Positions 7,181 through 60,045 are shown, counted from the first letter of the stretch. The stretch is DNA of 64,000 nt from an uncultured Bacilli bacterium (GCA_934190785.1 CAKPTA010000001.1:13514-77513), one strand, 5' to 3'. Notes: generated by a model from the sequence alone, not told the origin. Program-made: numbers and translations.

Positions 7181-7265
7181 AAATTAATTAAAAATGAGTA
7201 AAATATGTTAAAAATTGCATAGGAATTAAGATGGTGATTATGAGATAATAATTCGTAATAATATA

Positions 7266-8270: not shown

Positions 8271-8296
8271 AGTTAATAATATTGAAGGAGGAACTT

Positions 8297-8592
8297 ATGA
8301 AAGTAGTAACAATATGTGGTAGTATGAAATTTAAAGATAAAATGATGGAAGTTGCTAGAGATTTAGAAATTAAAAATAAATATGTAGTTATTCAATGTGT
8401 TTATAGTAATGATAAATTTAATTAAGAAGAACAAGTTTTATTAGCAGATTTGCATTATAAAAAAATTGATATAAGTGATGCAATATATGTAGTTAATGTT
8501 GATGGTTATATAGGTACATCAACCAAAAAAGAAATAGAATATGCAAAATCATTAAATAAAGAAATTTTTTCTTTAGAACCTCTAAACTATTA
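8297..8592 (+). pseudogene. small mobile-element-type ORF interrupted by an in-frame TAA
   Basis: GAAGGAGG RBS then ATG 8297; 'MKVVTICGSMKF…' runs to a TAA at 8422–8424, then continues in frame to 8592. Confidence 0.45.
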
Positions 8593-8677
8593 AAATTAAA
8601 ATAGATTTTGAGCTAATTCAAAAATCTAATTTTTTTATGATATAATAATAAAGAAATGAAAAAAGGAAGTGACTAAA

Positions 8678-38085: not shown

Positions 38086-38822
38086 TGGAGAGTTTCTATA
38101 TAACTGATCCTGGAAAGGTAAGAGATCACAATGAAGATAGTGTAACTATTGTCAGAAATGAAAGTGGTGAATACTTACTCGCTGTTGCTGATGGTATGGG
38201 TGGACATCTTTGTGGTGAAGTTGCATCGAGTTTAGCAATTACTTATATAGCTAATCGTTTTAAACAAATGAGCACAATTGGTAATAAAGAAGATGCAATT
38301 CATTGGATTCAAAATATTGCAGAAGAAGTAAATGTTCAAATATATAAATATACTGCAGAACATCCTGAAAGCGTTGGTATGGGAACAACATTTGTTATGG
38401 CAGTATTAACAAAAGATTTCCTACTATTTGGAAATATAGGTGATTCAAGTGGTTTTGTAATAAAAAAAGATAAAATAAAGAAAATTACAACAGATCATAC
38501 TCTTGTTAATTTACTTGTTAAATCAGGGGAACTTACAGAAGAAGAAGCCAAGAATCATCCAAGAAAAAATGTACTTATGAAAGCACTTGGTGCAGCTACT
38601 AAAGTAGAGATGGATGTTTTTGATGTTGAAAGAGATGTAAATGGAATATTTCTTTGTAGTGATGGTGTTACTAATCTTTTAGATGAAGATCAAATTCTTA
38701 GAGTTTTAGAAGAAGATTTGAGTATTGAAATGAAATTAGAAAAATTAGTTTATAAATGTAATAATAGAGGTGGAAATGATAATATTTCCATAGCTTATTT
38801 AAGAAAGGATGTATCAGAATAA
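38085..38822 (+). CDS. prpC: PP2C-family Ser/Thr phosphatase (Stp/PrpC)
   Basis: 'AVADGMGGH', 'GMGTT', 'LCSDGVTN' PP2C motifs. Confidence 0.85.
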   Translation: MESFYITDPGKVRDHNEDSVTIVRNESGEYLLAVADGMGGHLCGEVASSLAITYIANRFKQMSTIGNKEDAIHWIQNIAEEVNVQIYKYTAEHPESVGMGTTFVMAVLTKDFLLFGNIGDSSGFVIKKDKIKKITTDHTLVNLLVKSGELTEEEAKNHPRKNVLMKALGAATKVEMDVFDVERDVNGIFLCSDGVTNLLDEDQILRVLEEDLSIEMKLEKLVYKCNNRGGNDNISIAYLRKDVSE

Positions 38823-40621
38823 TGATAACAAGAGGTCAAAAAATTAATGATAGATATCAAATTATTCGTACCATAGGTGAGGGTGGAATGGCTAATGTAT
38901 ATTTAGCTCATGATATTATATTAGATAGAGATGTTGCTGTTAAAATTTTAAGAGGTGACTTAGCTGGAGATGAAAAGTTTGTTAGAAGATTTCAACGTGA
39001 GGCTATAGCTGCTAGTAGTCTTTCTCATCCTAATATTGTTGAAATGTATGATGTTGGAGAAGATGATGGTAAATATTTTATTGTTATGGAATATATAGAA
39101 GGTCAAACACTAAAAAATTTGATTAAAAAAAGAGGAGCTTTAACATTATCTGAGGTAATAGATATTATGTTACAACTTACAAGTGGTCTTGCTTGTGCTC
39201 ATGAATCCTATATTATTCATAGAGATATTAAGCCACAAAATGTTCTAATTTTAGATGATGGACGTGTTAAAATTACTGATTTTGGAATTGCTATGGCTTT
39301 AAATAGTAATGAACTTACACAAACAAATTCTGTAATGGGTTCTGTTCACTATCTTCCACCAGAGCAGGCTAATGGAAGTGGAGCTACTATCAAAAGTGAT
39401 ATTTATTCAACAGGAATTTTAATGTATGAATTGCTTACAGGAAAACTTCCTTTTAAAGGTGATAACGCTGTTGAGATAGCAATTAAGCAAATGAAAGATC
39501 CAATCCCAAGTATTTGTCTAGAAAATCCAGAAATACCACAAAGTATTGAAAATATTGTTTTAAAGGCAACAGCTAAAAATCCTAAAAATCGTTATGACAA
39601 TGTTTTAGAAATGCATAATGCCTTAAAAGTTGCTCTTGATAAAGATAAAAGAGATGAACCAAAAGTTGTTTTTCAATATCCAGAATATGAAATTATGGAA
39701 GATACACCTAAAGTTAGTCGTGCTAAACAAAATGAAGAAAAAAGAAATACTATAAAAGAAGAAAAAAAAGAAAAGAAAGTAAATAAGGCTTTGATTATAA
39801 CATCTATTATATCTTTAGTTGTATTAGTTTCTGTTGTTCTATTTTTCGTATTTACATCAATGAATGCTAAAACAAAAGAAATAGAAATTCCAGATGTATC
39901 AGGTCTTAGTGTTGCAAAAGCAGAAAAAAAACTAGAGTCACTTGGTTTTGAAGTTAAAGATGAAGTAACGGAAAAAAATAGTGACACTATTGAAGAGGGA
40001 AATGTTATTGAAACAAACCCTAAGATAGGGAGAACAGCTAAAAAAGGCTCAACTGTTACTTTAGTTGTTTCAAAAGGAGCAAGTGGCATTACACTTGAAA
40101 ACTATGTTGGTATGAATTATTATACGGTAAAAGCTACTTTAGAAGCCAATGGAATTGAAGTTGAATTAGAAAAAGAAGACCATACTGAAGAAGACGGCTT
40201 AGATCCTAACCTTGTCATAGCACAAGATAAATTAGCAGGTGATACTGTTAAAACAGGTGATAAAGTAAAACTTACAATTCCAAATATTATTACATTGTAT
40301 CCTGATTTTAGTACTTATACGTTAAAAGATGTACGTGCATTTTGTAAAAAATATAATATAATTTTAGAAGAATCTACAATTGAAACTTCAAGTTATTCTG
40401 AAAATACTATTATTTCACAAACAAAAAATATTGGTGATAAAGTATCGTCTGGTGATACTGTAAAAATTGTTATAGCAAAGGCACCAGCTGCTGTTATAAA
40501 ACCAGATGAAAAAGACGATACAACAAATGATAAAACAAATGGAGTAAGTGATAAAACTAATACAAATACATCAAACAAAGATAGTAGTTCTACTAGTGAA
40601 GAACAAAAAGAGAAAGAATAG
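38822..40621 (+). CDS. prkC: Ser/Thr protein kinase PrkC with PASTA repeats
   Basis: Hanks kinase motifs ('VAVKIL', 'HRDIKPQN', 'DFGIA'), a TM segment, three PASTA-like repeats and an S/T-rich tail. Confidence 0.9.
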   Translation: MITRGQKINDRYQIIRTIGEGGMANVYLAHDIILDRDVAVKILRGDLAGDEKFVRRFQREAIAASSLSHPNIVEMYDVGEDDGKYFIVMEYIEGQTLKNLIKKRGALTLSEVIDIMLQLTSGLACAHESYIIHRDIKPQNVLILDDGRVKITDFGIAMALNSNELTQTNSVMGSVHYLPPEQANGSGATIKSDIYSTGILMYELLTGKLPFKGDNAVEIAIKQMKDPIPSICLENPEIPQSIENIVLKATAKNPKNRYDNVLEMHNALKVALDKDKRDEPKVVFQYPEYEIMEDTPKVSRAKQNEEKRNTIKEEKKEKKVNKALIITSIISLVVLVSVVLFFVFTSMNAKTKEIEIPDVSGLSVAKAEKKLESLGFEVKDEVTEKNSDTIEEGNVIETNPKIGRTAKKGSTVTLVVSKGASGITLENYVGMNYYTVKATLEANGIEVELEKEDHTEEDGLDPNLVIAQDKLAGDTVKTGDKVKLTIPNIITLYPDFSTYTLKDVRAFCKKYNIILEESTIETSSYSENTIISQTKNIGDKVSSGDTVKIVIAKAPAAVIKPDEKDDTTNDKTNGVSDKTNTNTSNKDSSSTSEEQKEKE

Positions 40622-40629
40622 TTTAAGGT

Positions 40630-41475
40630 ATGCAGGGAAGAATTGTTAAAATAATAAGCAATGATTATACAGTATCAACAAATAATGGTATTTATGTATG
40701 CAAATCAAGAGGCAAATTTAGAAATATGAATATTACACCACTAGTTGGAGATTTTGTAGATATTGATACTTTAAATAATTATATTTTAGAAGTAAAAGCT
40801 AGAAAAAATGAACTTGTTCGTCCGCCAGTTTCTAATATAGATCAGGCATTTATAATTGCTAGTGTTAAACATCCTAATTTTGACTCCCTCCTTTTAGATA
40901 AACTTTTGTGTATTATAGAATTTAACAATATTAAACCTATTATATGTTTTACTAAATTAGATTTGCTCTCTTCTAGTGAAATAGAAAAAATAGAAGAATA
41001 TATTAATTATTATAAGAGCATTGGTTATAAAGTGTTTAAAAATACAGAACTTGATGAAATAGAGAAATGTTTCAAGGGTAAAGTATCGGTGTTTACAGGA
41101 CAAAGTGGTGCTGGTAAATCAACACTATTAAATCATTTAAACCCAGATATTTTGCTTAAAACAAATGAAATATCATATGCTCTTGGAAGAGGTAAACATA
41201 CAACAAGACATGTTGAATTAATTAGTGTTGCAGATGGACTTGTTGCTGATACACCAGGTTTCTCTGCATTAGCATTTGATTCAATGACAACTGCAGATAT
41301 TAGAGATAATTTTATAGAGTTTAACAAATATAGAGATTTATGTAAATATAAAGATTGCATGCATGATAAAGAAGATATTTCTGAGTGTTACATAAAAAAA
41401 TGTGTTAGTGAAAATAAAATACTTAAAAATAGATACGAAAACTATCTTTATTGCATCAATAAAAAGGAGAGGTAA
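40630..41475 (+). CDS. rsgA: ribosome small-subunit-dependent GTPase A
   Basis: OB-fold N-terminus, 'GQSGAGKSTLLN' P-loop, C-terminal zinc site 'CKYKDCMHDKEDISEC'. Confidence 0.85.
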   Translation: MQGRIVKIISNDYTVSTNNGIYVCKSRGKFRNMNITPLVGDFVDIDTLNNYILEVKARKNELVRPPVSNIDQAFIIASVKHPNFDSLLLDKLLCIIEFNNIKPIICFTKLDLLSSSEIEKIEEYINYYKSIGYKVFKNTELDEIEKCFKGKVSVFTGQSGAGKSTLLNHLNPDILLKTNEISYALGRGKHTTRHVELISVADGLVADTPGFSALAFDSMTTADIRDNFIEFNKYRDLCKYKDCMHDKEDISECYIKKCVSENKILKNRYENYLYCINKKER

Positions 41476-41477
41476 GT

Positions 41478-42089
41478 ATGGAGTTATCTGTTTCAATTTT
41501 AGGAATAAAGGATGAAAAAGAAAAGATTGAGCAAATTGAACAAACAAAAGTTGATTATCTTCATCTAGATGTTATGGATGGACATTTTGTTTCAAACATT
41601 ACTAATATGATGGGTATATATAGTAAGCCTCTTGATGTTCATCTTATGGTATGTGATGTTATGAAGTATGTAAATATATATGAAAAGTTAAAACCAACAT
41701 ATATAACTTTTCATATAGAATCAGTAGATAATCCAATAGAAATTATAAATTATTTGCACAAAAAAAATATAAAAGCTAGTATTTCTATTTGTCCAGAGAC
41801 AAATGTTGATACTTTAATTCCATATTTAGATGTTGTTGATATGGTACTTGTTATGAGTGTTCATCCTGGTCGTGGGGGACAAGGGTTTATGATGGAAGTT
41901 TTACCTAAAATAGAATCTTTATATAACATTCGTGAAAAAAACAATTATCATTATAAAATAGAGGTAGATGGTGGTGTTAATAAGGACACTATTAAATATT
42001 TAGATAAAGTTGATATTGCTGTTGTTGGAAGTTATATTACATCTGCAAGTGATTATAATTCACGTATTTTGACCTTAGAGAATGAGTAA
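41478..42089 (+). CDS. rpe: ribulose-phosphate 3-epimerase
   Basis: 'DYLHLDVMDGHFV', 'VMSVHPGRGGQGF'. Confidence 0.85.
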   Translation: MELSVSILGIKDEKEKIEQIEQTKVDYLHLDVMDGHFVSNITNMMGIYSKPLDVHLMVCDVMKYVNIYEKLKPTYITFHIESVDNPIEIINYLHKKNIKASISICPETNVDTLIPYLDVVDMVLVMSVHPGRGGQGFMMEVLPKIESLYNIREKNNYHYKIEVDGGVNKDTIKYLDKVDIAVVGSYITSASDYNSRILTLENE

Positions 42090-42163: not shown

Positions 42164-43441
42164 ATGGAAAGATTAAAAAAGATAAATTCAATATGCAACA
42201 TCATAACTATAGCTTTATTAATTTTATATTTAAATATTGGAACAGCTATTTTAATTTTTTTTAAATTATCATATTTAGAATTTTCATATGGACTTTATAT
42301 ATTTGGTACTTTAGCTTTAATACAATATATAGTTTTTAAAATATTAAATAAAGAACGTATAATTTTAAAAGATTTATTTATATTACTTCTAATCTTTTTT
42401 CTAATTATATCTTATTTATTTGCTTACAAAAAAAATGATGCTTTATTTGGTGTAATTACAAGAAATGAAGGACTATTTAGTTTAGTTAGTTATTATGCAT
42501 TATATTTACTTGCATCTACTATAAACGTAAAATCGCAAAGAAAATTATTAAATATATTTTTATTTACAGGCTTTATTCAAATTATTATTGGTGTTATGCA
42601 AACAATGCAAATAACCAATATTTTGGGTTATGATAGAAGTTTAAATTGGAGTACTAATTTCAAGTTTGCCAGCGGAACACTGGGCAATCCTAATTTTTAT
42701 TCTACTTATATTCTTATGTGTACTTTGTATTCGCAAGGAAGATTATTAGAAAAAAAGAGTCTTGGTTGGATTATAATATTTTTAATATTTGTAAGTGGCC
42801 TTATAATTGGAAATACAACATCATGTATGATTGCGTTTATTTTATGTTTTTTTGCTGTTCTTATAAAAAAGATAAATAAAAAAAATATTAAAAAAGTATT
42901 TTTTACATTAGTTATTAGTTCTGTAGTAATTATATGTAGTCTTTCTTTTTTTGATAAATTTGTTAATCATAGAATCAGTTATACAATGAACAAAAATATA
43001 AATGAAATAAGAGAAATATTTAAAAATGGAATAACTGATTCAACTGGCAATTATAGAGTATATATATGGCGAAATACTATAAGTAAAATACCAGAATATT
43101 TTTTAACGGGAATTGGAATAGATAATTTTTCCTATATAAATGATGGACATTATTTATGTGCTGGAGATAAAAACTATCAATGTTTTGATAAAGCACATAA
43201 TGAATATTTACAAATACTCATTACAGATGGTGTGATTACATTTTTAATATACATAGCATTTATCGTTTATATTTTAATTACAAGCAAAAACTGTCTAAAA
43301 GGAACTAAATTTGCTGTATATGGATATTTAATTCAAGCGTTATTTAATATTAGTGTTATTCCAGTAGCACCTATATTTTATATTTTGTTAGGGTTTATGT
43401 CATATAAAAGTAAATTAAGTATGGAGGTAACACATGAATAA
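42164..43441 (+). CDS. O-antigen ligase/polymerase (Wzy_C) family membrane protein
   Basis: About 10 TM helices and a periplasmic-loop 'KAHNEYLQILITDG' motif typical of O-antigen ligase-like proteins. Confidence 0.65.
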   Translation: MERLKKINSICNIITIALLILYLNIGTAILIFFKLSYLEFSYGLYIFGTLALIQYIVFKILNKERIILKDLFILLLIFFLIISYLFAYKKNDALFGVITRNEGLFSLVSYYALYLLASTINVKSQRKLLNIFLFTGFIQIIIGVMQTMQITNILGYDRSLNWSTNFKFASGTLGNPNFYSTYILMCTLYSQGRLLEKKSLGWIIIFLIFVSGLIIGNTTSCMIAFILCFFAVLIKKINKKNIKKVFFTLVISSVVIICSLSFFDKFVNHRISYTMNKNINEIREIFKNGITDSTGNYRVYIWRNTISKIPEYFLTGIGIDNFSYINDGHYLCAGDKNYQCFDKAHNEYLQILITDGVITFLIYIAFIVYILITSKNCLKGTKFAVYGYLIQALFNISVIPVAPIFYILLGFMSYKSKLSMEVTHE

Positions 43442-44522
43442 TGAAGATATTTTGAATATAGAAAATTTGAAATATTCAAGTAATACTTATGTAATTAGAT
43501 GGAATATGACAAAATTGTGTAATTACTACTGTGATTTTTGTATTCAAGGTGACAAAGATAAACATATAAAAGATAGCATTGGTGAAAACAAAGAAGTAAG
43601 ACATGAAATAGCTTTAAAAATAGTTAAATTTATAGAAGAAAAAATAAATAATAAATATAGTAATCTTCATATCTATTTAATTGGTGGAGAAGTAACAATA
43701 TTAAGTGATTTTAGAGATATATTTAAAATATTACTTAATGTTAAATTTGAAGGTGATATGGAGTTTCATATAACTACAAATCTATCTTGTAGGACGGAAT
43801 TCTTAGAAAATTTAAAAAGTGATTTTTTAAGTGTAAAATCGAAGTATAGTCGTAAATTATCTATTTCAGCTAGTTATTATAAAGAATTTTCAAACGAAGA
43901 AGAATTTATAAAGAAAGCAAGAATACTTCATAGTAATAGTGCTATAAGATATTATTTGATTAGTAAAAAAAACAAGTTTAAAAAAAATAAAATTATTTAT
44001 AAATATTTAAATCATCTTTCTAAAAATCCAATTATCATTATTTCAATTTCTTATCCACTTGTTGAAGATAAAGATTACGATTTATATAGAGCATTTAAAC
44101 GTAAATATTCTAAGTATGTAAATGCGATTAATTATATAATTGTTAGAAATTACAAGAAATCTATTTCAAATGATTTAAAAGATAAATTAAGTAATTCTAA
44201 TCGTAAGAGAATAAAATTAACAACTAAAACTGGTAAAGTATATTATTTTTCAAGTACAAGTAAAATAGGACTTTTAATTAATAAAACAAAACATTTTACT
44301 CCTAAAGGCTTTTTATGTGATTCTGGAGTTAACAGTATATCTATTAATTCACATGGTCTAGTATCACGTTGTCCTAGTTGTTCAAATTTGACGATTATAG
44401 GTAGTATTTTAAAAGATGATATAGATATTTTAAAAACTAAAATATCATGTCCTAGTTTAAGTTGTAGTTGTGATTACTATCATGTTATTGAAAGTAGGAA
44501 AAAAGATGAAACAAAAAACTAA
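43434..44522 (+). CDS. radical SAM protein with C-terminal SPASM/twitch-like Cys-rich domain
   Basis: 'KLCNYYCDFC' CX3CX2C near the N-terminus; C-terminal 'CDSG…RCPSCSN…CPSLSCSCDYY' auxiliary-cluster cysteines. Confidence 0.65.
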   Translation: MNNEDILNIENLKYSSNTYVIRWNMTKLCNYYCDFCIQGDKDKHIKDSIGENKEVRHEIALKIVKFIEEKINNKYSNLHIYLIGGEVTILSDFRDIFKILLNVKFEGDMEFHITTNLSCRTEFLENLKSDFLSVKSKYSRKLSISASYYKEFSNEEEFIKKARILHSNSAIRYYLISKKNKFKKNKIIYKYLNHLSKNPIIIISISYPLVEDKDYDLYRAFKRKYSKYVNAINYIIVRNYKKSISNDLKDKLSNSNRKRIKLTTKTGKVYYFSSTSKIGLLINKTKHFTPKGFLCDSGVNSISINSHGLVSRCPSCSNLTIIGSILKDDIDILKTKISCPSLSCSCDYYHVIESRKKDETKN

Positions 44523-46674
44523 AATAATATTTATAATTTTATGTTTTTTAATTATAGCTGTTGCTTTATTATTTATTGTCTTTAAAGATAAAAAGGTTAT
44601 TCTTAATATTGATTTAAAAAAACAAAATAATGTTTATTATGTAGAAAATGATGATAATTTATCCATTCTAGATTTGAAATATCAAAATAGTGTTACAACA
44701 CTTATAAATAATAAAAAGAATGATAAAATATATACCGTTAAAGCTCCTTTATTAATTATTAATCCATATAGTACTAATATTACAGGGTTGTATATTTATT
44801 TTACTACTTTTAAAAAATATAAAATAGAGTATGTAATTCATACAACTGATGATGTAGCTGATTACACTAATACACTTGCAAGTGGTCTTAGTCACTTTCA
44901 TGAAGGGCAAATAATTGGTCTCATTCAAGGAACTAAGAATGTTATTACTATAAGATTAGTTGATTCAAATAATAATGTAAAAGATGAATATAAATATGAA
45001 ATAGATGTTCCTGATTTTAATACTAATTCTATTAAAAGAATAGAAAGTGATATGGAAGTTGATAGTTCTGAAATAGAAGATGGACTTTACATGTTTTCTA
45101 ATATATCAGCATCATCAGATGATATTAATATTCCTTTGTCATTTTATGATAAATATGGTATTTTAAGAGCTGAATTTACTGAAGAGAGCGGAAGACATAC
45201 TAATAGAGTTATTTATATAGACAACAAGTTTTTATATGCTTTTGATTCATATAATTTTGTTCTTGTAAATGGTCTTGGTAAAATAGAAAATATATATCAT
45301 ACAATTGATAAAAATGAACACGATTATATTTATGATGAGAGTAAAAATGCGATTTTATATGTAGCTGGGCTAGATATGGTTAGAATACTTAATTTAAATG
45401 ATTATAGTGATGAGTTATTATTTGATTTAAATGATGTTATGAAAGATTATAGTGATAAAGCAAAAGAATATGCTTCCATTCACAATCCAAGTGATACATA
45501 TGATTGGGCACACATAAATAGTATTGAAATAGTAAATGATAATGATTTAATATTATCACTTCGTGAGTCATCTAGTATAATTTATTTTGAAAATGTATAT
45601 AAATCACCTAAAATAAAATATATTATTGCCCCTAAAGCAATTTACGAGAATACAGGATATGAGGATTATTTATTAAAACAAGTAGGGGAATTTCCTGTTA
45701 ATGCTGGGCAGCATAGTGTTTATATAGAAAAAGATAACAGTTTAAAAGAAGGTAGTTATTATTTATATTTTTTCAATAATAACTATGCAAAAAGTTCAAC
45801 CGTTGTAAATGAAGATTGGGTTAATACTATTGAGGGGGTTGGACAAAGAAGTAATGGTGCTTCTAGATCTATGTATTATAAATATTTAATTGATGAGGAT
45901 AGTAGAACATTTGAACTTGTAGATAGTATGGATGTACCATATTCAAATGCAAAGAGTATTGTAACAAAATATCATAATAATTATATAGTTGCACTAGGAA
46001 AGCGTAGTTCAATTTATGAATATGATGAAAATAAAAAACTTCTTCTTAAACTTAGAATGAATGTTTATAAGGATATTTATAGAGGCTTTAAATTAGATAT
46101 GAATCACTTTTGGTTTGATACTAGTAGATATACAAAACAAGAAAATAAAAATTATGATACAATTATCGAGGAAGATAACGAAAGTATTTTTAATTATAAT
46201 AAAAAAACAGGAACTATTTTAGGTGTAAATAGTAATAATTCAGCTATAAATGAAAGTAATATTATTTATTATGATACTCTTTATTTTACAATATATGACT
46301 ATAGTGATGATACTATCATTATTCCAAGTTCAATTAATAATGTTAAAATAAAAAGTATAGCAGGAATAAACCTTAATAATGTAAAAAAAATAATCATTGA
46401 AGAAGGAATTGAAAAAATAGATAATTATGCTTTCTTAGGTTGTGATAATTTAGAAGAAATTATTTTACCAAGTACTTTAAAAAGTATAGGAAGTTACGCT
46501 TTCTTAAATTTAAAAAAAATAAAAAATATTTATATACCTGATAGTATAGATTACATAGGTGAATATGCTTTTAAAGGCTTCGATGATACTGAAACAATAT
46601 CACTGCCCAAAAATAGAAATTACGCAGCAAATTGGAAAACTAACATGAAGGCAAAAATAGAATGGAGAGACTAA
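44506..46674 (+). CDS. exported ASST-family (arylsulfotransferase-like) beta-propeller protein with C-terminal BspA-type leucine-rich repeats
   Basis: N-terminal signal anchor; 'DTYDWAHINSIEIVNDNDLILSLRESSSIIYF' ASST-like core; C-terminal 'IDNYAFLGCDNLEEIILPSTLKSIGSYAF…' LRR_5 repeats. AGGAA RBS before ATG 44506. Confidence 0.5.
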   Translation: MKQKTKIIFIILCFLIIAVALLFIVFKDKKVILNIDLKKQNNVYYVENDDNLSILDLKYQNSVTTLINNKKNDKIYTVKAPLLIINPYSTNITGLYIYFTTFKKYKIEYVIHTTDDVADYTNTLASGLSHFHEGQIIGLIQGTKNVITIRLVDSNNNVKDEYKYEIDVPDFNTNSIKRIESDMEVDSSEIEDGLYMFSNISASSDDINIPLSFYDKYGILRAEFTEESGRHTNRVIYIDNKFLYAFDSYNFVLVNGLGKIENIYHTIDKNEHDYIYDESKNAILYVAGLDMVRILNLNDYSDELLFDLNDVMKDYSDKAKEYASIHNPSDTYDWAHINSIEIVNDNDLILSLRESSSIIYFENVYKSPKIKYIIAPKAIYENTGYEDYLLKQVGEFPVNAGQHSVYIEKDNSLKEGSYYLYFFNNNYAKSSTVVNEDWVNTIEGVGQRSNGASRSMYYKYLIDEDSRTFELVDSMDVPYSNAKSIVTKYHNNYIVALGKRSSIYEYDENKKLLLKLRMNVYKDIYRGFKLDMNHFWFDTSRYTKQENKNYDTIIEEDNESIFNYNKKTGTILGVNSNNSAINESNIIYYDTLYFTIYDYSDDTIIIPSSINNVKIKSIAGINLNNVKKIIIEEGIEKIDNYAFLGCDNLEEIILPSTLKSIGSYAFLNLKKIKNIYIPDSIDYIGEYAFKGFDDTETISLPKNRNYAANWKTNMKAKIEWRD

Positions 46675-46675
46675 T

Positions 46676-48112
46676 ATGAAAGTTAAAAAAATTGTATTTA
46701 TTGTAGCTTTATTATTGATTTTATGTGGTATTTTTTATTGTTTACCATATAAAAATACCGTAGAATTATATATAAATGGTGAAAAATTCATTTTATCATC
46801 AACAGATGAAAATAGGGAATTTGATTTAAAAACATTATCATCTACTAGAGATAGTTATGTCAAAGTTACTACAAATGGGAAGACAAATGTTAAAGTTAAT
46901 GGGAAAAGAGTATTTAAGTATATAAAAAATAATATCGGAAAAATTGCTATAAATGAAGATAATAAAATTGAAATTGAAATAAAATTTGGTACAAACAAAA
47001 AAGCTACTAAATATGTTATTAATACATTACCATCAACATTTTTAGAATATGATACAAAAAATAACGGTGATAATTATGATGGCATTTATTATATGAGTAC
47101 TTATTCTTTAGCTGATCAAACAAGTTACATTTTTAATTTAAACAGTAATGGAGAGGTACTTTATTATAAAAGTGTGGAAGGTTTTTGTTCACAGTTTAGG
47201 CATGAAATTTCAAAGAGTGGTAAAGATAGATTTGTCTATACAGCCCAGGATTTATCTGATGACAAAACAGTTGATATGAACAATATATATGGTAAATTTG
47301 TTGTTATGGATGAAAATTATAAAGTAATAGATGAAGCTCGTTATATAACAGAAAGAGAAGATGAAAAAACATATACAATATTTGAATATATAGATGATTA
47401 TCACTATCTTATGACTTCATCATACAAATCATATGTGGATGATATTGAAGGCTTTGATAAGGTTATGTTAACACAAAATAACATTGAAGAAGTGGAAAAT
47501 GGTAAAGTCATCTTTAAGTGGGAAAGTGAAGAACATAAAGAACTTTATGATTATACTGATACAAGTACATTTACAAGTGAAGATACAAATGATTATTTGC
47601 ATATTAATAAGATTATAATTGATCCTGTAGATGGCAACATTATAGCTTCATTTAGAAATATCAGTACGATTTTAAAAATAGATAGAAAAACAGGTGATAT
47701 TATTTGGTCACTTGGTGGTAAAAAAGATGATTTTGGATTAACTCTAGATGAAATGTTCAATTATCAACATTCTCTATCATTCACGAGTGATCATTCACTT
47801 ATGATTTTTGATAATGGAGATAATAGACCTCTTCTTGGAATAAAAAATGAATCAAAAGTTGTTAAAATAAAATTGGATGAAAAAAATAAAAAAGTAGAAA
47901 ACTATAAAGCATATAAACTTAATGGTGTATATTCAATGGCCATGGGTTCAGTTCAAGTAATAGATGAAGAAAATGATGTGTTTTTAGTTACATATGGAAC
48001 AGGAATATTTAATAATGGACCAGTGGCACTTATTGATTTTAAAAATAATAAAAATTTATTTGAGTTTAATCTTCATTCTAATAAAATGATGTTTTCTTCT
48101 GAAAAAGAATAA
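46676..48112 (+). CDS. exported ASST-family (arylsulfotransferase-like) beta-propeller protein
   Basis: Signal anchor; 'HINKIIIDPVDGNIIASFRNISTILKIDRKTGDIIWSLGG…QHSLSFTSDHSLMIFDNGDN' matches ASST family hallmarks. Confidence 0.55.
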   Translation: MKVKKIVFIVALLLILCGIFYCLPYKNTVELYINGEKFILSSTDENREFDLKTLSSTRDSYVKVTTNGKTNVKVNGKRVFKYIKNNIGKIAINEDNKIEIEIKFGTNKKATKYVINTLPSTFLEYDTKNNGDNYDGIYYMSTYSLADQTSYIFNLNSNGEVLYYKSVEGFCSQFRHEISKSGKDRFVYTAQDLSDDKTVDMNNIYGKFVVMDENYKVIDEARYITEREDEKTYTIFEYIDDYHYLMTSSYKSYVDDIEGFDKVMLTQNNIEEVENGKVIFKWESEEHKELYDYTDTSTFTSEDTNDYLHINKIIIDPVDGNIIASFRNISTILKIDRKTGDIIWSLGGKKDDFGLTLDEMFNYQHSLSFTSDHSLMIFDNGDNRPLLGIKNESKVVKIKLDEKNKKVENYKAYKLNGVYSMAMGSVQVIDEENDVFLVTYGTGIFNNGPVALIDFKNNKNLFEFNLHSNKMMFSSEKE

Positions 48113-48134
48113 ATAAATAATAATGAGGTGTTTT

Positions 48135-49286
48135 ATGAGAAAAAATATTATGATGTTAATTGGATATTTAACAAATGGAGGAGCAGAAAGATCAATTACA
48201 AATGTTGCTAACGAATTATCAAAACATCATAATGTTATCTTAGTAGTGGCAGGAGCAAAAAAAATAGATTATCCATGTCATGTTAAAATAATTGAACTTA
48301 AGTCTCTTCGTAAAAGAAATAAGTTTAAAGCTATTCATGAATTAAAAAAATTAAAAAAAGAATATAAAATCGATGTTACAATTAGTTATACAACAGTTTA
48401 CAATTATTATAATGTAATGTCTAAATATAAAGATAAAACTATTATTTCAATTCGTAATCATTTATCAACAAAGCATGAAAAAAGAAGAGATAGAATTATG
48501 CATAGAATATCAATAAAACTAGCCCAAAGAATAGTATGTTGTTCACAGAGTGTTTATTATGATCAATTAAATAATTATTACGCTAATCCTAAAAAATTAT
48601 TGGTTATTCAAAATTTCTGTAATTTAGATGGTATTATAAGTGATATGGGTTGTGCGATAAAAGATTGTGACATGCATTTAGTAAATGATCATTTAATTAT
48701 TACGATGGCTCGTCTTGTACCACATAAAGGTCATAAACATATTATGAAAGCAATGTCACTTGTTGTAAAAGAAATTCCAGATGCACATTTACTTATATTT
48801 AGTAGAGGCCCATTACGTGAAGAATTAGAAGAATTTTCTAAAAAATTGCATTTAGAAAACAATATATTTTTTATGGATTTTCACCCAAATCCATATCAAT
48901 TTATAAAGTTAGCAAAAGCGTTTATTTTAGCTTCTGATTATGAGGGATTTCCAAATGTTTTAATTGAAGCTATGGCATGTGGAGCACCTATTATTGCAAC
49001 AGATGCTCCAGGTGGATCTAGAGAAATCGTAAGTAATACCGTTTCTAAGGGTGAATTTGTTAATGATTTAACAGAAATGGATTATGGAATTTTAATTCCA
49101 AGCTTTATTAATGAACATGATAGTTCTGATATAACTGAACATGAGAAAATGCTAGCACGTGCGTTTATAATACTTTTAAGTGATGATAATAAATATCATT
49201 ATTACCATAATAAATCATTAGAACGAACTGATGCGTTTGCACGTGATAAAATTTTAAAAAAATGGCTAGATGTTATTGGAGAGTGA
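48135..49286 (+). CDS. GT4-family glycosyltransferase
   Basis: 'EGFPNVLIEAMACGAPIIATDAPGGSREIV' EX7E motif; TGAGGTG RBS before ATG 48135. Confidence 0.75.
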   Translation: MRKNIMMLIGYLTNGGAERSITNVANELSKHHNVILVVAGAKKIDYPCHVKIIELKSLRKRNKFKAIHELKKLKKEYKIDVTISYTTVYNYYNVMSKYKDKTIISIRNHLSTKHEKRRDRIMHRISIKLAQRIVCCSQSVYYDQLNNYYANPKKLLVIQNFCNLDGIISDMGCAIKDCDMHLVNDHLIITMARLVPHKGHKHIMKAMSLVVKEIPDAHLLIFSRGPLREELEEFSKKLHLENNIFFMDFHPNPYQFIKLAKAFILASDYEGFPNVLIEAMACGAPIIATDAPGGSREIVSNTVSKGEFVNDLTEMDYGILIPSFINEHDSSDITEHEKMLARAFIILLSDDNKYHYYHNKSLERTDAFARDKILKKWLDVIGE

Positions 49287-49291
49287 TGAAA

Positions 49292-50461
49292 ATGAATATG
49301 AAGAAGAAAAATGTTATGTTTTTAATTGGTAAGATGCAAACAGGTGGAGCAGAGCATGTTGTATATAATTTATGTAATTCTCTAAAAGATGAATATAATA
49401 TAACACTTGTTACGCGTACGATGGAAGGTGCTGATTATATACCTGATGTTAATACTGTAGAAATACCTGAACTTGGTAGTAAAAAGAAATTATTCTTAGG
49501 ACTTAAAAAATTAAAAAAATTAAAAAAGAAGTTAAAAATTGATACTTCAATTAGTTTTTTGCTTAAGTATAATATTTATAATTATTTAACTAAAAATAAA
49601 GAAAGAGTTATTATATCTGTTAGAAATAATATAACATCTTCAAAGCGTATTTATTCTAAGACATATATAGCTTTATATAAAAAAATTATTAACAAAGTTG
49701 ATTTAGTTGTAAATGTATCAGCAACGACAATGGATGATTCTATTCGTAATTTTGGCGCTAACCGTAATAAAAATATTGTTATTCCAAATTTTTGTGATTA
49801 TGAATTTATAAATAGTGTTAAAAATGAAGAACTTCCAGATGAACATCGTGATATTTTTAAAAGGGATGTTATTATTTCTAATGGAAGATATAATTATCAA
49901 AAAGGGCAATGGCATTTAATTAGAGCATTTAAGAATGTTGCATCTAAAAATCCAAATGCTGTATTAGTTTTAACAGGAAGAGGTTCACTTAAAGAGTACT
50001 TTGAAGCATTAGTTGATGAATTAAATCTTAAAGATAATGTTTATATATTAGATTATGTAGATAACGTCTATAGATATATGCATCACGCAAAAATGTTCTT
50101 CTTAAATTCTTTTTATGAAGGTATGCCTAATGTTTTACTAGAAGCTATGGCGTGTGATTTACCTGTTATTGCAACCGATGCTCCAGGTGGTTCTAAAGAA
50201 ATATTAGAGCCTGGTTCTAATATTAATGAACGACTAAAAGAAGTAACTTGCGCTAGTTATGGGGTATTAGTTCCAATGTGTGATGGAAATATGTATAGTG
50301 CAAATGATGCTTTAACTAAAGAAGAAGAACAATTAGCTGATGCCATTAATATGATGTTAGAAGATGACAAGTTATATAATGACTATAAGAAAATTTCTGA
50401 ACAAAGAGTATTAGATTTTTCTAGGGATAAAATCTTGGATATGTGGCGAAAAATCATTTAA
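49292..50461 (+). CDS. GT4-family glycosyltransferase
   Basis: 'EGMPNVLLEAMACDLPVIATDAPGGSKEIL'; GGAGAG RBS before ATG 49292. Confidence 0.75.
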   Translation: MNMKKKNVMFLIGKMQTGGAEHVVYNLCNSLKDEYNITLVTRTMEGADYIPDVNTVEIPELGSKKKLFLGLKKLKKLKKKLKIDTSISFLLKYNIYNYLTKNKERVIISVRNNITSSKRIYSKTYIALYKKIINKVDLVVNVSATTMDDSIRNFGANRNKNIVIPNFCDYEFINSVKNEELPDEHRDIFKRDVIISNGRYNYQKGQWHLIRAFKNVASKNPNAVLVLTGRGSLKEYFEALVDELNLKDNVYILDYVDNVYRYMHHAKMFFLNSFYEGMPNVLLEAMACDLPVIATDAPGGSKEILEPGSNINERLKEVTCASYGVLVPMCDGNMYSANDALTKEEEQLADAINMMLEDDKLYNDYKKISEQRVLDFSRDKILDMWRKII

Positions 50462-50705
50462 AAACTTGACTTTTAAGTGAGGGGAAAGTATTATATATGC
50501 TAGTCAAATTACAAAAAAATAATATTACTGATACTATAATAAAATTCACAAAAAAATACAAAATTAAAATTAGAATTTTACATTATTAATTGAGATAATA
50601 AACGTTATCTTTTTTTTATTTCAGATGCATCTTATCTTGAAATAAATACTTATATTATTTATAATGTATATGTAATAGATAATAGATGGGAGTATAGGTG
50701 ATTTT

Positions 50706-51842
50706 ATGACTGATTCATATAAGTATAAATTATTTGTTCCATATAGGGTATCACCTCTTGGAGCTCACATTGACCATCAACTTGGAATTGTTACGGGATT
50801 TGCTCTTGATAAGGGAATAACTATTAAATATAATGCTACAAAAGATGGGAGATTTACAGTAGAATCACATGATTTTGAAGTTAAAACAAATTTTGATTAT
50901 GATTCAATACCTAAAATGGATGGATCATGGCATGATTATTTAGTTGGAAGTATCTTAGCATTAATGGAAAAGAATGATCTTAAATATGGAATAGATGCTT
51001 ATATATGTGAATCACTTCCAGTCGGTGGACTTGCTAGTTCTTCAGCTATTATAATTTCTTATATTTTATCAATTGCAACTGTAAATGATATTAAATTAGA
51101 AGAATATGATCTCATTAAATATGTTCAAAGTGTTGAAAATAAATATTTAAATACAAAAGTTGGAATATTAGATCCAAGTTGTGAAATATATGGAAGAGGC
51201 GATTCTTTGTTATGTTTTGATACTAAAAATAATCAACACAAGTTGATAAAAATGAATAGTAAAAGTAATTTTAAAATTTGTCTTATATATTCTGGTGTAT
51301 CAAGAAGACTTACAAATACAATGTATAATGTTAGAGTTGATGAATGTAAAGCATCAGCATTTCTTTTAAATTCGCTTCTTCAGAATAGTCCGATTGAGTA
51401 TAATAATGCTTATCTTAGAAATTTTTCATATGATGATTTTATTAAAAATAAGCAATATTTTCCAGTTAATTATTTGAAAAGAACTCATCACTTTTTTAGT
51501 GAAAGTGAAAGAGTAAATAAGGGAATTAAATATTTTATGAATGGTGATATGGATAATTTTGGAAAATTAGTATTTGAGTCTGGAACCAGTTCAATTGAAA
51601 ATTATGAAACAGGATCTGAACAATTAGAGGTTTTGCATAATATAGCAATGAAGACAAAAGGTATTTATGGTGGTAGATTTTCAGGAGCAGGATTTAATGG
51701 TTACTATATGGCTATCATTGATCCTAAATATGAAGATGAAATAATTAATGTGATAACAAAAGAATATCTTAATATCTATCCGCAATATAAAGATGATTTT
51801 AAAATATACTTATGTAATGTTGGGAGAGGAGTGAATTTATGA
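50706..51842 (+). CDS. GHMP-family sugar kinase (galactokinase-like)
   Basis: 'PYRVSPLGAHIDHQLG' motif I and 'LPVGGLASSSAIIISY' ATP-binding motif II. Confidence 0.7.
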   Translation: MTDSYKYKLFVPYRVSPLGAHIDHQLGIVTGFALDKGITIKYNATKDGRFTVESHDFEVKTNFDYDSIPKMDGSWHDYLVGSILALMEKNDLKYGIDAYICESLPVGGLASSSAIIISYILSIATVNDIKLEEYDLIKYVQSVENKYLNTKVGILDPSCEIYGRGDSLLCFDTKNNQHKLIKMNSKSNFKICLIYSGVSRRLTNTMYNVRVDECKASAFLLNSLLQNSPIEYNNAYLRNFSYDDFIKNKQYFPVNYLKRTHHFFSESERVNKGIKYFMNGDMDNFGKLVFESGTSSIENYETGSEQLEVLHNIAMKTKGIYGGRFSGAGFNGYYMAIIDPKYEDEIINVITKEYLNIYPQYKDDFKIYLCNVGRGVNL

Positions 51843-52564
51843 AATGTATTTTATTAGTAGGAGGTTATGCACGCCGTATGTATCCACTTACAGAAAATGT
51901 TCCTAAGCCTTTACTTAAAGTTAATGATAAAACTGTTTTGGATATTATTTTGGATATTATTGATGGTAGTACTAATGAAATAGATGAATATATATTAATT
52001 ACAAATGAAACATTTTATGAAAATTTTGTAGCTTGGAGTGAAAGCTCAAAATATAGAGAAAAAATAAAAATTATAAGTGATGGCTCTACTTCGAATGAAA
52101 AGAAAGTTGGTGCCACAACAGCACTTATTCAAACACTTACAAGTTATGAAGTTGATGATGATGTACTTGTTTTAGCTGGTGATAATATTTTAGATTTTTC
52201 ACTTGATTATATTTTTAAATATTTTATGAATAATCCATATTCTTGTATTATGTATTATAATGAAGATAAAAATGAAAAATTAAGAAAAACGGGTGTAATT
52301 GAAATCGATTGTGATGATTTTGTAAGTTCGATGGAAGAAAAACCAGAAAAGCCAAAAAGTCCTCATGCTGTTCCACCTTTTTATTGGCTAAAAAAGGAAG
52401 ATGTAAAAAAATTAATTAAGAAATTTGAAAATACTAGTCATATTGATTCGCTTGGAACAATAATATTAAAATTATGTGAGGAAACAAAAATTAAAGCTAT
52501 AAAAATGCATGGTAAAAGATATGATGTTGGTTCACTTGATGAGTATTATAAATTATTAGCGTAG
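51839..52564 (+). CDS. sugar-phosphate nucleotidyltransferase
   Basis: 'ILLVGGYARRMYPLTENVPKPLLKV' NTP_transferase motif; about 240 aa (HddC/GlmU-N-like size); start overlaps the kinase stop. Confidence 0.7.
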   Translation: MKCILLVGGYARRMYPLTENVPKPLLKVNDKTVLDIILDIIDGSTNEIDEYILITNETFYENFVAWSESSKYREKIKIISDGSTSNEKKVGATTALIQTLTSYEVDDDVLVLAGDNILDFSLDYIFKYFMNNPYSCIMYYNEDKNEKLRKTGVIEIDCDDFVSSMEEKPEKPKSPHAVPPFYWLKKEDVKKLIKKFENTSHIDSLGTIILKLCEETKIKAIKMHGKRYDVGSLDEYYKLLA

Positions 52565-52572
52565 GGGGATGT

Positions 52573-54222: not shown

Positions 54223-54235
54223 GGAGTAGGTAATC

Positions 54236-55345: not shown

Positions 55346-55353
55346 GTGAATTA

Positions 55354-58144: not shown

Positions 58145-58149
58145 TATTT

Positions 58150-59804: not shown

Positions 59805-59958
59805 CTTTATAACTAGCACACATTGTAGTCTTTTTTTCGCCACAACCATCGCAGTTGCATACGTCAATTTTTTTAAGTCCACACTTGTCGCATTTACAAT
59901 CACAATGTTCACAGTCGTGAACTTTACAATTAATTGTTTGTTCATCGTTTTTTTTCAA
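59788..59958 (-). CDS. unannotated 56-aa cysteine-rich small protein (10 Cys; metallothionein-like/metal-binding peptide)
   Basis: GGGTGA RBS 5 nt before TTG 59958. Translation is 'MKKNDEQTINCKVHDCEHCDCKCDKCGLKKIDVCNCDGCGEKKTTMCASYKAKKED'. An alternative GTG start lies 9 nt upstream. Absent from the ORF track (<60 aa). Confidence 0.45.
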   Translation of the reverse strand: MKKNDEQTINCKVHDCEHCDCKCDKCGLKKIDVCNCDGCGEKKTTMCASYKAKKED

Positions 59959-60045
59959 TTTAATCACCCATTTTTATTTTTATCAAAGTTTAATAATTTA
60001 TTCATAAAATAAAAACAAATTCATACGATTATATGGGTGAATGAT

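Follow-up and report, generated by a model that had tools for sequence, protein, structure and literature searches.

A radical SAM enzyme that appears to tailor a cell-surface glycan shares an operon, in an uncultured Bacilli bacterium, with a separable, mobile pair of arylsulfate sulfotransferase (ASST) homologs. We favor, with moderate confidence, an explanation in which this pair sulfates the surface glycan outside the cytoplasm and independently of PAPS. The window analysed is a stretch of 64,000 nucleotides, and the glycan operon occupies positions 42164-59778 of it, from a Wzy_C gene to an AsnB gene. The radical SAM, ASST1 and ASST2 genes are tightly packed within the operon at 43434-48112; the initial annotation had placed three genes there inside a glycan locus, and all three open reading frames are as it described.

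Organization of the glycan operon

The annotated features are as follows.

42164..43441, plus strand: Wzy_C membrane protein, O-antigen ligase/polymerase-like (Pfam PF04932, 66.7 bits)
43434..44522, plus strand: radical SAM enzyme, 362 aa (Pfam Radical_SAM, 37.3 bits; cut-off 29.5 bits)
43518..43541, plus strand: CX3CX2C motif of the SAM-binding [4Fe-4S] cluster (C29, C33 and C36 in all 37 family members)
44316..44471, plus strand: C-terminal Cys region of the radical SAM enzyme (family alignment)
44506..46674, plus strand: ASST1, with Ig-like N domain, beta-propeller and C-terminal leucine-rich repeats (LRR) (Pfam)
46369..46623, plus strand: BspA-type LRR (LRR_5) region of ASST1 (PF13306, 74.6 bits)
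46676..48112, plus strand: ASST2, Cpz4-like beta-propeller, 478 aa (PF05935, 81 bits)
48123-49286, plus strand: GT4a, GT4 glycosyltransferase (Pfam Glycos_transf_1; GT4 pair 113-116 bits)
49262-50461, plus strand: GT4b, GT4 glycosyltransferase (as for GT4a)
50706-51842, plus strand: GHMP sugar kinase (Pfam)
51839-52564, plus strand: sugar-1-phosphate nucleotidyltransferase, NTPt (Pfam)
52573-54222, plus strand: AsnB-like 1 (Pfam)
54236-55345, plus strand: GT4c (Pfam)
55354-57066, plus strand: ABC exporter (Pfam)
57029-58144, plus strand: GT4d (Pfam)
58150-59778, plus strand: AsnB-like 2 (Pfam)

Wzy_C is the first gene of the operon, and its last 8 nt are shared with the radical SAM gene; in six other loci (L006, L007, L008, L033, L034 and L035) a Wzy_C ortholog likewise immediately precedes the radical SAM gene. 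The GHMP kinase and nucleotidyltransferase, which form a single fused gene in L004, constitute a salvage-type sugar activation step. The nearest NCBIfam model to GT4a and GT4b is PglJ, at a score far under its cut-off. Downstream of NTPt the gene order is identical in L007 up to GT4d, where that locus ends.

The locus genes (42164-59778) include no donor-making gene of the type III PKS or PAPS sulfotransferase kind. The earlier remark that neither a sulfatase nor an obvious precursor peptide is present holds among these genes: the Pfam scan revealed no sulfatase, and no plausible conserved RiPP precursor reading frame adjoins the radical SAM gene. The sole small intergenic reading frames on the plus strand (50497-50589 and 59905-60012) are low-complexity and lie away from that gene.

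Sequence and predicted fold of the radical SAM enzyme

The SAM-cluster motif CNYYCDFC, at residues 29-36, and the above-threshold Pfam match bear out the earlier identification of a CX3CX2C radical SAM protein. Its C-terminus is Cys-rich (C295, C313, C316, C339, C344 and C346); across the 37 family members C295, C313, C339 and C344 never vary, C346 is kept in at least 90%, and C316 varies. Because only four to five of these Cys are conserved and the Pfam SPASM model (PF13186) is not matched, the C-terminal domain looks like a one-cluster twitch-type domain, and the Cys region probably holds one auxiliary [4Fe-4S] cluster. The same observations speak against a full seven-Cys SPASM domain with two auxiliary [4Fe-4S] clusters; of the "SPASM/twitch-like" description, the Cys count fits the twitch-like part.

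The HMM classification proposed in the initial annotation returned matches that all lay under cut-off, the best scoring 43 bits against a required 200. Twitch-type model NF033640 was matched by 36 of the 37 members (best E 2e-11, scores far under the 170-bit cut-off), STM4011 by 33, and viperin and MoaA by 32 each; RiPP maturase models were matched by at most 14, and the anSME model TIGR03942 by a single member at E<1e-3. A weak N_Twi_rSAM match spans the core (residues 22-254), and weak NCBIfam matches to STM4011 and TIGR04133 span the C-terminal Cys region. An AlphaFold model (pLDDT 89) showed fold matches to MoaA, TigE, DesII, PqqE, AbmM and SpeY at TM of about 0.4, that to SpeY being weak, and a profile search of PDB sequences gave no significant match. 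The enzyme belongs to a separate, unnamed family. Identity as an anSME is not supported, given the single matching member, the lack of a sulfatase among the locus genes and the lack of a C/S-x-P/A-x-R motif in the ASSTs; RiPP maturase identity is likewise not supported, there being no adjacent precursor gene and the neighbours being GT4 and Wzy_C genes.

The family is rare: out of 1.84e9 searched, about 60 representatives reach E<=1e-30 (56 clusters at 90% identity). It lies in glycan loci of several phyla, in Bacilli, Clostridia, Lachnospiraceae, Coriobacteriia and Bacteroidales MAGs. Within four genes of 29 distinct family genes, GT4 genes were found in 18 cases, Wzy_C in nine and ASST in three. 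The most frequent Pfam families among 96 neighbours were GT4 (19), Wzy_C (9), pectate-lyase-like beta-helix proteins (5-8), GT2 (4) and UDP-glucose dehydrogenase (3). In L002 and L008 a single glycan locus contains two radical SAM paralogs, the behaviour of a tailoring enzyme. The radical SAM gene goes with the glycan locus and not with the ASSTs; from this gene context its substrate class would be a sugar and its reaction a form of sugar tailoring.

Two divergent ASST homologs

The ASST1 reading frame is open from GTG 44470, and ATG 44506 is its likely start because an AGGA motif lies upstream and orthologs of 722 aa are found (range 722-743 aa). The radical SAM and ASST1 genes thus share 17 nt, or 53 nt if GTG 44470 is used, which agrees with the translational overlap reported earlier for these two genes. 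ASST1 matches Arylsulfotran_N (PF17425) at 30.6 bits (cut-off 24.2), and its propeller falls narrowly short of the 27-bit cut-off of Arylsulfotran_2 (PF14269) at 26.5 bits. Its family profile matches E. coli AssT (E 2e-7), with WAHINS/SLRE of one opposite WAHVNS/SSRH of the other. The LRR_5 match lies far above its 27.7-bit cut-off, upholding the BspA-type repeats noted previously, and extends to LRR proteins in the PDB (4fs7, 4h09 and PcpA 4cp6; E 4e-29). Relatives without the LRR are 538-550 aa long and 49-51% identical, and relatives at 34% identity are ordinary 572-aa gut ASSTs carrying PF05935. ASST1 is a probably membrane-anchored ASST homolog of classical architecture.

ASST2 matches PF05935 and PF14269 (68.5 bits) well above their cut-offs of 24.2 and 27 bits. 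The initial assignment of both propeller proteins to the ASST family is therefore supported by Pfam for ASST2 and by profile evidence for ASST1; the propeller motifs quoted with it are present in the ASST2 sequence. The closest solved relative of ASST2 is Cpz4 (9kf4/9kf6, E 3e-21 by sequence). In Foldseek searches, the predicted ASST2 model (pLDDT 90, N-terminal helix 2-22) matched Cpz4 9kf4 at E 8e-18, 9kf6 with TM 0.63-0.67 and rmsd 3.3 A, and AssT 3ett at E 3e-13. BLASTP gave no match between ASST1 and ASST2, and the link was seen by profile comparison only (hhalign of the two families: 97% probability, E 4.5e-11, 341 columns); on this evidence they are not close paralogs.

In the active site of EcAST, His436 is the nucleophile and His356, Asn358 and Arg374 bind the sulfuryl group (PMC13426309). 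Both proteins here retain this His/Asn/Arg/His set. In ASST1, H272, H336, N338, R353 and Q402-H403 are invariant among 26 sequences. In ASST2, H309, N311, R327 and H365 (in YQH) stand unchanged in 12 close relatives and in most of 31 relatives, being lost only in a few distant ones; H243 is a candidate equivalent of EcHis252. Both N-termini are hydrophobic, and both proteins are predicted to be membrane-anchored with an extracellular catalytic domain.

The radical SAM gene and the ASST pair are separable

The initial annotation had suggested that the radical SAM enzyme modifies the propeller proteins, and we considered the possibility that it matures both ASSTs before export, by a cross-link, a formylglycine-like residue or another change, as anSME does for sulfatases. 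In favor of this, the order radical SAM-ASST1-ASST2 is kept in four loci, and the 17-nt overlap is compatible with some functional coupling in this clade. Many radical SAM enzymes that modify proteins or peptides carry a Cys-rich auxiliary domain, and the weak RiPP maturase matches point the same way. A precedent exists in the TIGR04133 system of Bacteroides, in which radical SAM/SPASM proteins are paired with beta-propeller lipoproteins; the enzyme described here matches that model weakly, at 28 bits (cut-off 425 bits).

Comparative genomics of the trio, as the initial annotation advised, argues against such maturation. No ASST lies near 26 of the 29 family genes with context. The initial annotation had named absence of the propeller genes from an otherwise identical relative locus as counting against its idea, and L007 (rlmN-PP2C-PrkC-RsgA-Rpe-WzyC-rSAM-GT4-GT4-GHMP-NTPt-AsnB-GT4-ABC-GT4) is syntenic and lacks both; L007 and L034, which has the ASSTs, are equally divergent from the window. 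Conversely, L038 carries GT4b (56%)-NTPt (59%)-AsnB1 (58%)-AsnB2 (46-48%)-ASST1 (55%)-ASST2 (60%), with no radical SAM gene within 10 kb. The radical SAM gene and the ASST pair, which is also conserved in L033, L034 and L035, thus dissociate in both directions. A search for target sites revealed neither an FGly-type [CS]x[PA]xR motif nor a conserved Cys in ASST1 or ASST2, the anSME model is matched by one member only, and both ASSTs appear to be membrane-anchored Sec-type proteins, which would normally be exported unfolded. Maturation of the ASSTs by the radical SAM enzyme is accordingly very unlikely. The broader suggestion of an unusual glycan/aryl-modifying module remains viable, not as one trio, the evidence favoring two separable modules.

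Possible roles of the ASST pair

Of 19 independent contexts of ASST2-type genes, at least eight are cell-wall glycopolymer loci, L038 being one of them. The other neighbourhoods include ManC-GT2-GT2-Wzx (L042), two TagF genes with an ABC-2 exporter (L044), a UDP-sugar dehydrogenase, 2-epimerase and GT4 (L057), Wzy_C, an acyltransferase and DegT (L060), GT2 and YfhO (L061), NTPt, a 4,6-dehydratase and UDP-galactopyranose mutase (L065), and LRR_5 and GT2 (L037). The ASST pair is an add-on that recurs in Gram-positive cell-wall glycan loci. ASST genes in such loci had been called an undescribed combination, and the literature searched indeed contained no description of one; the association is recurrent here.

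The pair might instead act on small molecules at the cell surface, moving sulfate between dietary or host phenolics in detoxification or nutrient processing. Classical ASSTs act on small phenols, and all characterised ASSTs other than Cpz4 use phenolic acceptors; the location of the ASSTs in a glycan operon could therefore be incidental. Such a position might mean no more than that the pair is co-expressed with surface structures, or that the site lends itself to insertion. Surface-glycan loci are insertion hot spots, as illustrated by an extra 2.1 kb in L035 at the position of window 50500-50566, and the 34%-identical relatives of ASST1 are ordinary gut ASSTs. Moreover, about half of the ASST2-type contexts (11 of 19, such as L045, L068 and L073) showed no verified glycan genes, five of the 11 having been scanned. 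On the other side, glycan and teichoic-acid loci of independent arrangement show the linkage repeatedly, orthologs of GT4b, NTPt and AsnB accompany the pair in L038, and the nearest solved homolog, Cpz4, sulfates a sugar hydroxyl. A GT2-ASST fusion protein (P0106) also exists, encoded in a non-glycan gene neighbourhood. We regard a small-molecule role as possible but rather unlikely.

More doubtful still is a reading of the pair as surface proteins, adhesive or active on glycans, in which the ASST scaffold serves non-sulfuryl chemistry. Examples of such chemistry would be transfer of a phosphoryl or other group via the His nucleophile, or cleavage or release of a polymer by analogy with pectate-lyase-like proteins. 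Pectate-lyase-like proteins, which flank the radical SAM gene in L002 and L004, hold the same position there, BspA LRR are typical of surface adhesins, and one ASST2-type gene adjoins TagF-type phosphotransferases. Against this, the sulfuryl-binding residues are all invariant in each of the two families, and the closest resemblance in fold and sequence is to bona fide sulfotransferases.

A proposed model for glycan tailoring and sulfation

In the explanation that we favor, the radical SAM enzyme would be a core tailoring enzyme of the surface glycan pathway. Most likely, a 5'-deoxyadenosyl radical would take hydrogen from a carbon of a nucleotide-activated or lipid-linked sugar; the sugar would be oxidised, epimerised or dehydrated, as happens with BtrN, DesII or SpeY, and a neighbouring GT4 would take up the product. 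ASST1, with its LRR, and ASST2 would make up a mobile accessory module of two genes, which in one clade has been inserted behind the radical SAM gene and ahead of the first GT4 gene. Catalysis would be ping-pong, the His nucleophile forming sulfo-histidine while His, Asn and Arg hold the sulfuryl group. There is no PAPS outside the cell, and ASST donors are aryl sulfates; since the acceptor of Cpz4, moreover, is a sugar hydroxyl, the pair would most likely serve in PAPS-independent O-sulfation of the exported glycan, with gut aryl sulfates as donor and the surface glycan as acceptor. Two points count against this: Gram-positive bacteria seldom have sulfated polymers in their cell walls, and no gene of the locus supplies a sulfate donor.

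Comparison with known systems

The radical SAM enzyme shares a CX3CX2C motif and a probable C-terminal auxiliary-cluster domain with sugar and nucleotide twitch/SPASM enzymes (BtrN, DesII, SpeY, AbmM, MoaA and viperin), and like them it sits in a sugar-pathway setting, although its structural neighbours MoaA, DesII, AbmM and SpeY are distant, with no significant sequence match to solved structures. With anSME and RiPP SPASM maturases it has in common the radical SAM core and a Cys-rich C-terminus, but those enzymes have seven to eight auxiliary Cys in place of its four to five conserved ones.

E. coli AssT (PDB 3ELQ/3ETS/3ETT) and ASST1 both comprise an N-terminal Ig-like sandwich (PF17425) and a 6-bladed propeller, and His356, Asn358, Arg374 and His436 of AssT correspond by alignment to H336, N338, R353 and H403. 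AssT resides outside the cytoplasm, as ASST1 is predicted to do. AssT is a soluble periplasmic homodimer dependent on disulfide formation by DsbL/DsbI, whereas ASST1 has no conserved Cys, is predicted to be anchored in the membrane, bears a BspA LRR at its C-terminus and invariably comes with a second, divergent ASST.

Cpz4, the caprazamycin sulfotransferase of Streptomyces sp. MK730-62F2 (PDB 9KF4/9KF6), is of the ASST type, as is ASST2, and the two share the DYxHIN...R...QH catalytic motifs at 21% identity over the structural alignment. Cpz4 is PAPS-independent and cytoplasmic, and its substrate is a small liponucleoside of an antibiotic pathway, whereas the ASST2 gene lies in a cell-wall glycan operon; unlike Cpz4, ASST2 has an extra beta-sandwich and is predicted to be anchored in the membrane by its N-terminus.

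Organization of the glycan operon

The genes considered here lie in a closely packed glycan operon (42164-59778) in DNA with a G+C content of about 25%, with the following order:

37060-42089, housekeeping block (rlmN, PP2C phosphatase, PASTA kinase, rsgA, rpe) upstream of the operon
42164-43441, + strand, Wzy_C, first gene of the operon
43434-44522, + strand, radical SAM protein (rSAM)
44506-46674, + strand, arylsulfate-sulfotransferase-like protein with LRR (ASST1)
46676-48112, + strand, second arylsulfate-sulfotransferase-like protein (ASST2)
48123-50461, + strand, two GT4 glycosyltransferases (GT4a and GT4b)
50462-50705, 245-nt gap between GT4b and the GHMP kinase
50706-52564, + strand, GHMP kinase and NTP-transferase
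as far as 59778, + strand, AsnB-like 1 (52573-54222), GT4c, ABC exporter, GT4d and AsnB-like 2 (58150-59778)

The Wzy_C and rSAM genes overlap by 8 nt, and rSAM and ASST1 by 17 nt if ASST1 starts at the ATG at 44506, which has an AGGA motif upstream; 1 nt separates ASST1 from ASST2, and 10 nt separate ASST2 from GT4a. Gene calls, Pfam matches and these junctions bear out the three-gene arrangement described by the initial annotation, whose observation, given the gene content of the operon, is therefore correct. A promoter and terminator scan was uninformative in this AT-rich DNA, yielding 176 promoter-like sites against 168 expected. The top promoter-like site of the region (TTGAAA-17-TATAAT, 50637-50665) lies inside the GT4b/GHMP kinase gap. 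This gap also holds the one exception to colinearity, at 98% nucleotide identity, with locus L035 of a close relative: an additional 2.1 kb (L035 11945-14059) replaces window 50500-50566 and includes two ORFs, of 353 and 328 aa, without Pfam matches. The difference is a gain or loss at strain level within the glycan operon.

Other genes of the region bear on the nature of the glycan. Because they begin with MELFG... and MEVSV..., neither of the two AsnB-like proteins has the N-terminal Cys that serves class II glutamine amidotransferases as nucleophile; both are unlikely to hydrolyze glutamine, and they may be amidoligases that depend on ATP and have sugar carboxylates as substrates. The GHMP kinase and the sugar-1-phosphate nucleotidyltransferase, separate here, form one fused 644-aa protein in the related locus L004 (19068-21002), an arrangement similar to Fkp-type sugar salvage and activation that suggests that the glycan takes in a scavenged sugar. 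Directly 3' of the operon (60037-62972) is a three-gene cluster that encodes a DUF2229 protein with a CoA enzyme activase domain, a protein with a 2-hydroxyglutaryl-CoA dehydratase D-component domain and a BcrAD/BadFG-type ATPase; it appears unconnected with the rSAM and ASST genes.

The radical SAM protein belongs to a rare, nameless family

The rSAM protein carries a CNYYCDFC motif and passes the Pfam Radical_SAM cut-off, and no NCBIfam model matched it at cut-off (the best, STM4011, scored 43 bits where 200 are required). Its family came to 56 clusters in a word-indexed search of 5.8 billion proteins and to 60 members with E<=1e-30, about 45 of them full length, when 1.84 billion representatives were searched exhaustively with a profile; the family is small, rare and without a name. 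In a 37-member alignment C29, C33, C36, C295, C313, C339 and C344 are invariant, C346 reaches at least 90% conservation and C316 varies. This pattern would fit a single auxiliary cluster (twitch-like) rather than a seven-Cys SPASM domain, for which no Pfam match was found in rSAM. The Cys-rich C-terminus, originally described as SPASM/twitch-like, looks more like the second than the first.

Across the 37 members, NCBIfam matches were weak but consistent for the twitch radical SAM (36 of 37), STM4011 (33), viperin (32) and MoaA (32) models, whereas RiPP maturase models matched at most 14 members and anSME only one. For rSAM itself the viperin model scored 34 bits against 180. Defence-system models gave only weak pVip matches, over the N-terminal cluster-binding region, and viperin was rejected as an identity because these scores are far under cut-off and because of the glycan-locus context. 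An AlphaFold model of rSAM (pLDDT 89) searched against the PDB with Foldseek best matched MoaA, TigE, DesII, PqqE, AbmM and SpeY, all generic radical SAM folds at a TM of ~0.4, and the sequence profile found no significant match in the PDB.

Distant relatives include tandem double radical SAM proteins and larger fusions (P0271, P0275 and P0277, of 590-623 aa, together with P0306, P0327 and P0262). The middle domain of P0262 (992 aa), between its two radical SAM halves, has a weak match to the GT4-like NCBIfam model TuaH (E 3e-9) that Pfam did not confirm, and a reading of this protein as a radical SAM-GT4 fusion was dropped as evidence.

The ASST pair and the radical SAM gene are separable

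The genomic context of rSAM homologs was examined in MAGs of Bacilli, Clostridia, Lachnospiraceae, 'Tenericutes', Coriobacteriia and Bacteroidales, most of them recovered from the guts of rabbits and ruminants. Homologs at 31-59% identity adjoin GT4, Wzy_C, AsnB-like, ABC, UDP-glucose dehydrogenase and pectate-lyase-like genes, and ASST genes are absent from those neighbourhoods. Context was available for 29 distinct family genes: within four genes of them, GT4 occurs in 18 cases, Wzy_C in nine and ASST in three.

Two relatives' loci bear directly on the main idea of the initial annotation, namely that rSAM matures both ASST propeller proteins. Locus L007 has the gene order of the window (rlmN-PP2C-PrkC-RsgA-Rpe-WzyC-rSAM-GT4-GT4-GHMP-NTPt-AsnB-GT4-ABC-GT4), with proteins 56-72% identical, and yet just 169 nt, without ASST genes, separate rSAM from GT4. 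This syntenic locus is decisive: rSAM does not travel with the ASSTs. ASSTs are present in L034, which is as divergent from the window as L007, and the complete trio recurs in L035 (97-99% identity) and L033 (~72%). Conversely, L038, on a 179-kb contig of a spore-former, reads GT4b(56%)-NTPt(59%)-AsnB1(58%)-AsnB2(46-48%)-ASST1(55%)-ASST2(60%), and tblastn found no rSAM, Wzy_C or ABC exporter match across the 21-kb locus. Orthologs of both AsnB-like proteins accompany the ASST pair there. The pair and rSAM therefore part in both directions, the pair remaining with glycan genes, and we consider it highly probable that they are two separable modules.

Neither ASST1 nor ASST2 contains a C/S-x-P/A-x-R target motif or a conserved cysteine. 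The lack of a precursor peptide noted at the outset was confirmed, in that a small-ORF search of the locus gave no credible candidate. Together with the failure of co-occurrence, the missing motif and cysteines lead us to discard ASST maturation by rSAM as very improbable.

Some glycan loci carry two rSAM paralogs (L002, 10001-11041 and 13317-14423; L008, 2719-3777 and 10001-11053), behaviour typical of sugar-tailoring enzymes. A 45-aa ORF (13180-13317) lies directly 5' of the second L002 copy. Secreted right-handed beta-helix proteins resembling pectate lyases (Pectate_lyase_4, Pel9A-like, PelX) are encoded directly upstream of rSAM homologs in several loci (L002 8363-9964; L004 7609-9978; 5-8 of 96 neighbours), at times with a UDP-glucose dehydrogenase nearby, which hints at a polymer with uronic acid. 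Nothing relevant came from searching the literature for radical SAM enzymes encoded in polysaccharide loci.

Both ASST proteins retain sulfuryl-transfer residues

ASST2 strongly matches PF05935 and PF14269, and its model (pLDDT 90) comprises an N-terminal helix (2-22), a beta-sandwich and a propeller. Its closest solved relative is Cpz4, both by sequence (E 3e-21) and by fold (9kf4, E 8e-18; TM 0.63-0.67 and rmsd 3.3 A against 9kf6), with E. coli AssT behind it in the fold ranking (E 3e-13). ASST1 combines an ASST-specific Ig-like N domain with a BspA LRR; 572-aa ASSTs of the classical kind, with PF17425 and PF05935, are related to it at 34% identity, and its family profile matches E. coli AssT, WAHINS...SLRE lying opposite WAHVNS...SSRH. 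BLASTP of ASST1 against ASST2 gave no match, and their kinship is seen at profile level only (hhalign 97%, E 4.5e-11). Both have a hydrophobic anchor at the N-terminus.

The E. coli active site comprises His252, His356, Asn358, Arg374, Thr501 and the sulfo-histidine nucleophile His436 (PMC13426309). The corresponding residues of ASST1, H336, N338, R353 and H403, together with H272, are invariant in 26 sequences; those of ASST2, H309, N311, R327 and H365, do not vary among close relatives, and only a few distant relatives have lost them. Both ASSTs therefore look catalytically competent. That they instead perform non-sulfuryl chemistry, or have an adhesin or processing role, we regard as improbable.

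ASST genes recur in glycan loci

A metagenome scan with an ASST2 alignment returned 34 loci, which with L037 and L038 make 21 distinct ASST2-type clusters, 19 of them with some neighbouring genes. Pfam analysis of neighbours, which covered 13 of these 19 contexts, placed glycan or teichoic-acid genes beside the ASST2-type gene in at least eight of the 19:

L042, ManC-GT2-GT2-Wzx
L044, two TagF-type glycerophosphotransferases and an ABC-2 exporter
L057, UDP-sugar dehydrogenase, UDP-GlcNAc 2-epimerase and GT4
L060, Wzy_C, acyltransferase_3 and DegT
L061, GT2 and YfhO
L065, nucleotidyltransferase, 4,6-dehydratase and UDP-galactopyranose mutase
L037, LRR_5 protein and GT2
L038, the eighth glycan context, with GT4b, NTPt, AsnB1 and AsnB2 beside the ASST pair

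The glycan setting is thus recurrent and not a one-off. Other contexts (L045, L068, L073) are not glycan-related, as might be found if the ASSTs transferred sulfate among small-molecule phenols and their position in glycan loci were incidental; we think this account rather unlikely. P0106 (L036 10001-12325) is a 774-aa fusion of an ASST with a GT2 glycosyltransferase. It stands alone, without other glycan genes, on a Gram-negative contig with Mla, AsmA and OMP neighbours.

In L037 an ASST2-type gene (37% identical) is directly preceded by the gene of a separate LRR_5 protein (6365-8620), which parallels the ASST1-LRR fusion and suggests that the LRR_5-ASST partnership recurs. L064 is a further case of paired ASST genes (489-2096 and 2704-4386), here on opposite strands with one small ORF between them. 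As the initial annotation had supposed, ASSTs in Gram-positive surface-glycan loci appear undescribed: full-text literature searches found no paper in which ASSTs are connected with teichoic acid or with polysaccharide clusters of bacteria.

Proposed roles and relation to known systems

From its genomic context and the kind of its nearest relatives, rSAM is probably a tailoring enzyme of twitch type in the glycan pathway, which would abstract hydrogen from a nucleotide- or lipid-linked sugar and pass its product to a neighbouring GT4. ASST1 and ASST2 form a mobile, obligately paired, membrane-anchored module that would perform ping-pong sulfuryl transfer outside the cell, from environmental aryl sulfates to an acceptor that would most likely be the exported glycan. 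The role of ASST1 may be donor capture or, through its LRR, tethering of the pair, and sugar hydroxyls may be the targets of the Cpz4-like ASST2. The pairing, like the catalytic residues and the link to glycan genes, is an observation. That the pair sulfates glycan specifically is a proposal we put forward tentatively. More doubtful still is the broader combination, in which a subfamily of anchored ASSTs, here the ASST1-ASST2 pair, would represent a hitherto unrecognized extracytoplasmic, PAPS-independent sulfation of Gram-positive cell-wall glycopolymers from aryl sulfates of host or diet, and rSAM a new cross-phylum, twitch-type family devoted to tailoring surface-glycan sugars.

A 2026 review describes the physiological roles of these enzymes as poorly understood to date, and notes that it has yet to be learned which acceptors bacterial PAPS-independent aryl sulfotransferases naturally use and what they do in the cell (PMC13426309). 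The maturase idea falls, sparing effort on that hypothesis, and a testable lead on ASST physiology stays: the linkage to glycan and teichoic-acid loci makes the surface polymer of the cell itself a concrete candidate substrate. If this is true, it would supply a long-missing physiological role for bacterial ASSTs; gut Firmicutes could gain negative envelope charge outside the cell, with sulfate from host-conjugated phenolics, which would matter for phage receptors, for recognition by the immune system and for the turnover of xenobiotic sulfate. The rSAM family, not tied to the ASSTs, is a clean, rare enzymology target in glycan biosynthesis.

What is new is the repeated occurrence of anchored ASST genes, as a two-gene module, inside Gram-positive cell-wall glycan loci, and the linkage of a rare radical SAM family to glycan loci across phyla. 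Both enzyme superfamilies were already known, as was sugar-hydroxyl sulfation by an ASST: a sugar hydroxyl is the preferred sulfation site of Cpz4 (PMC13426309), which provides the precedent for such chemistry.
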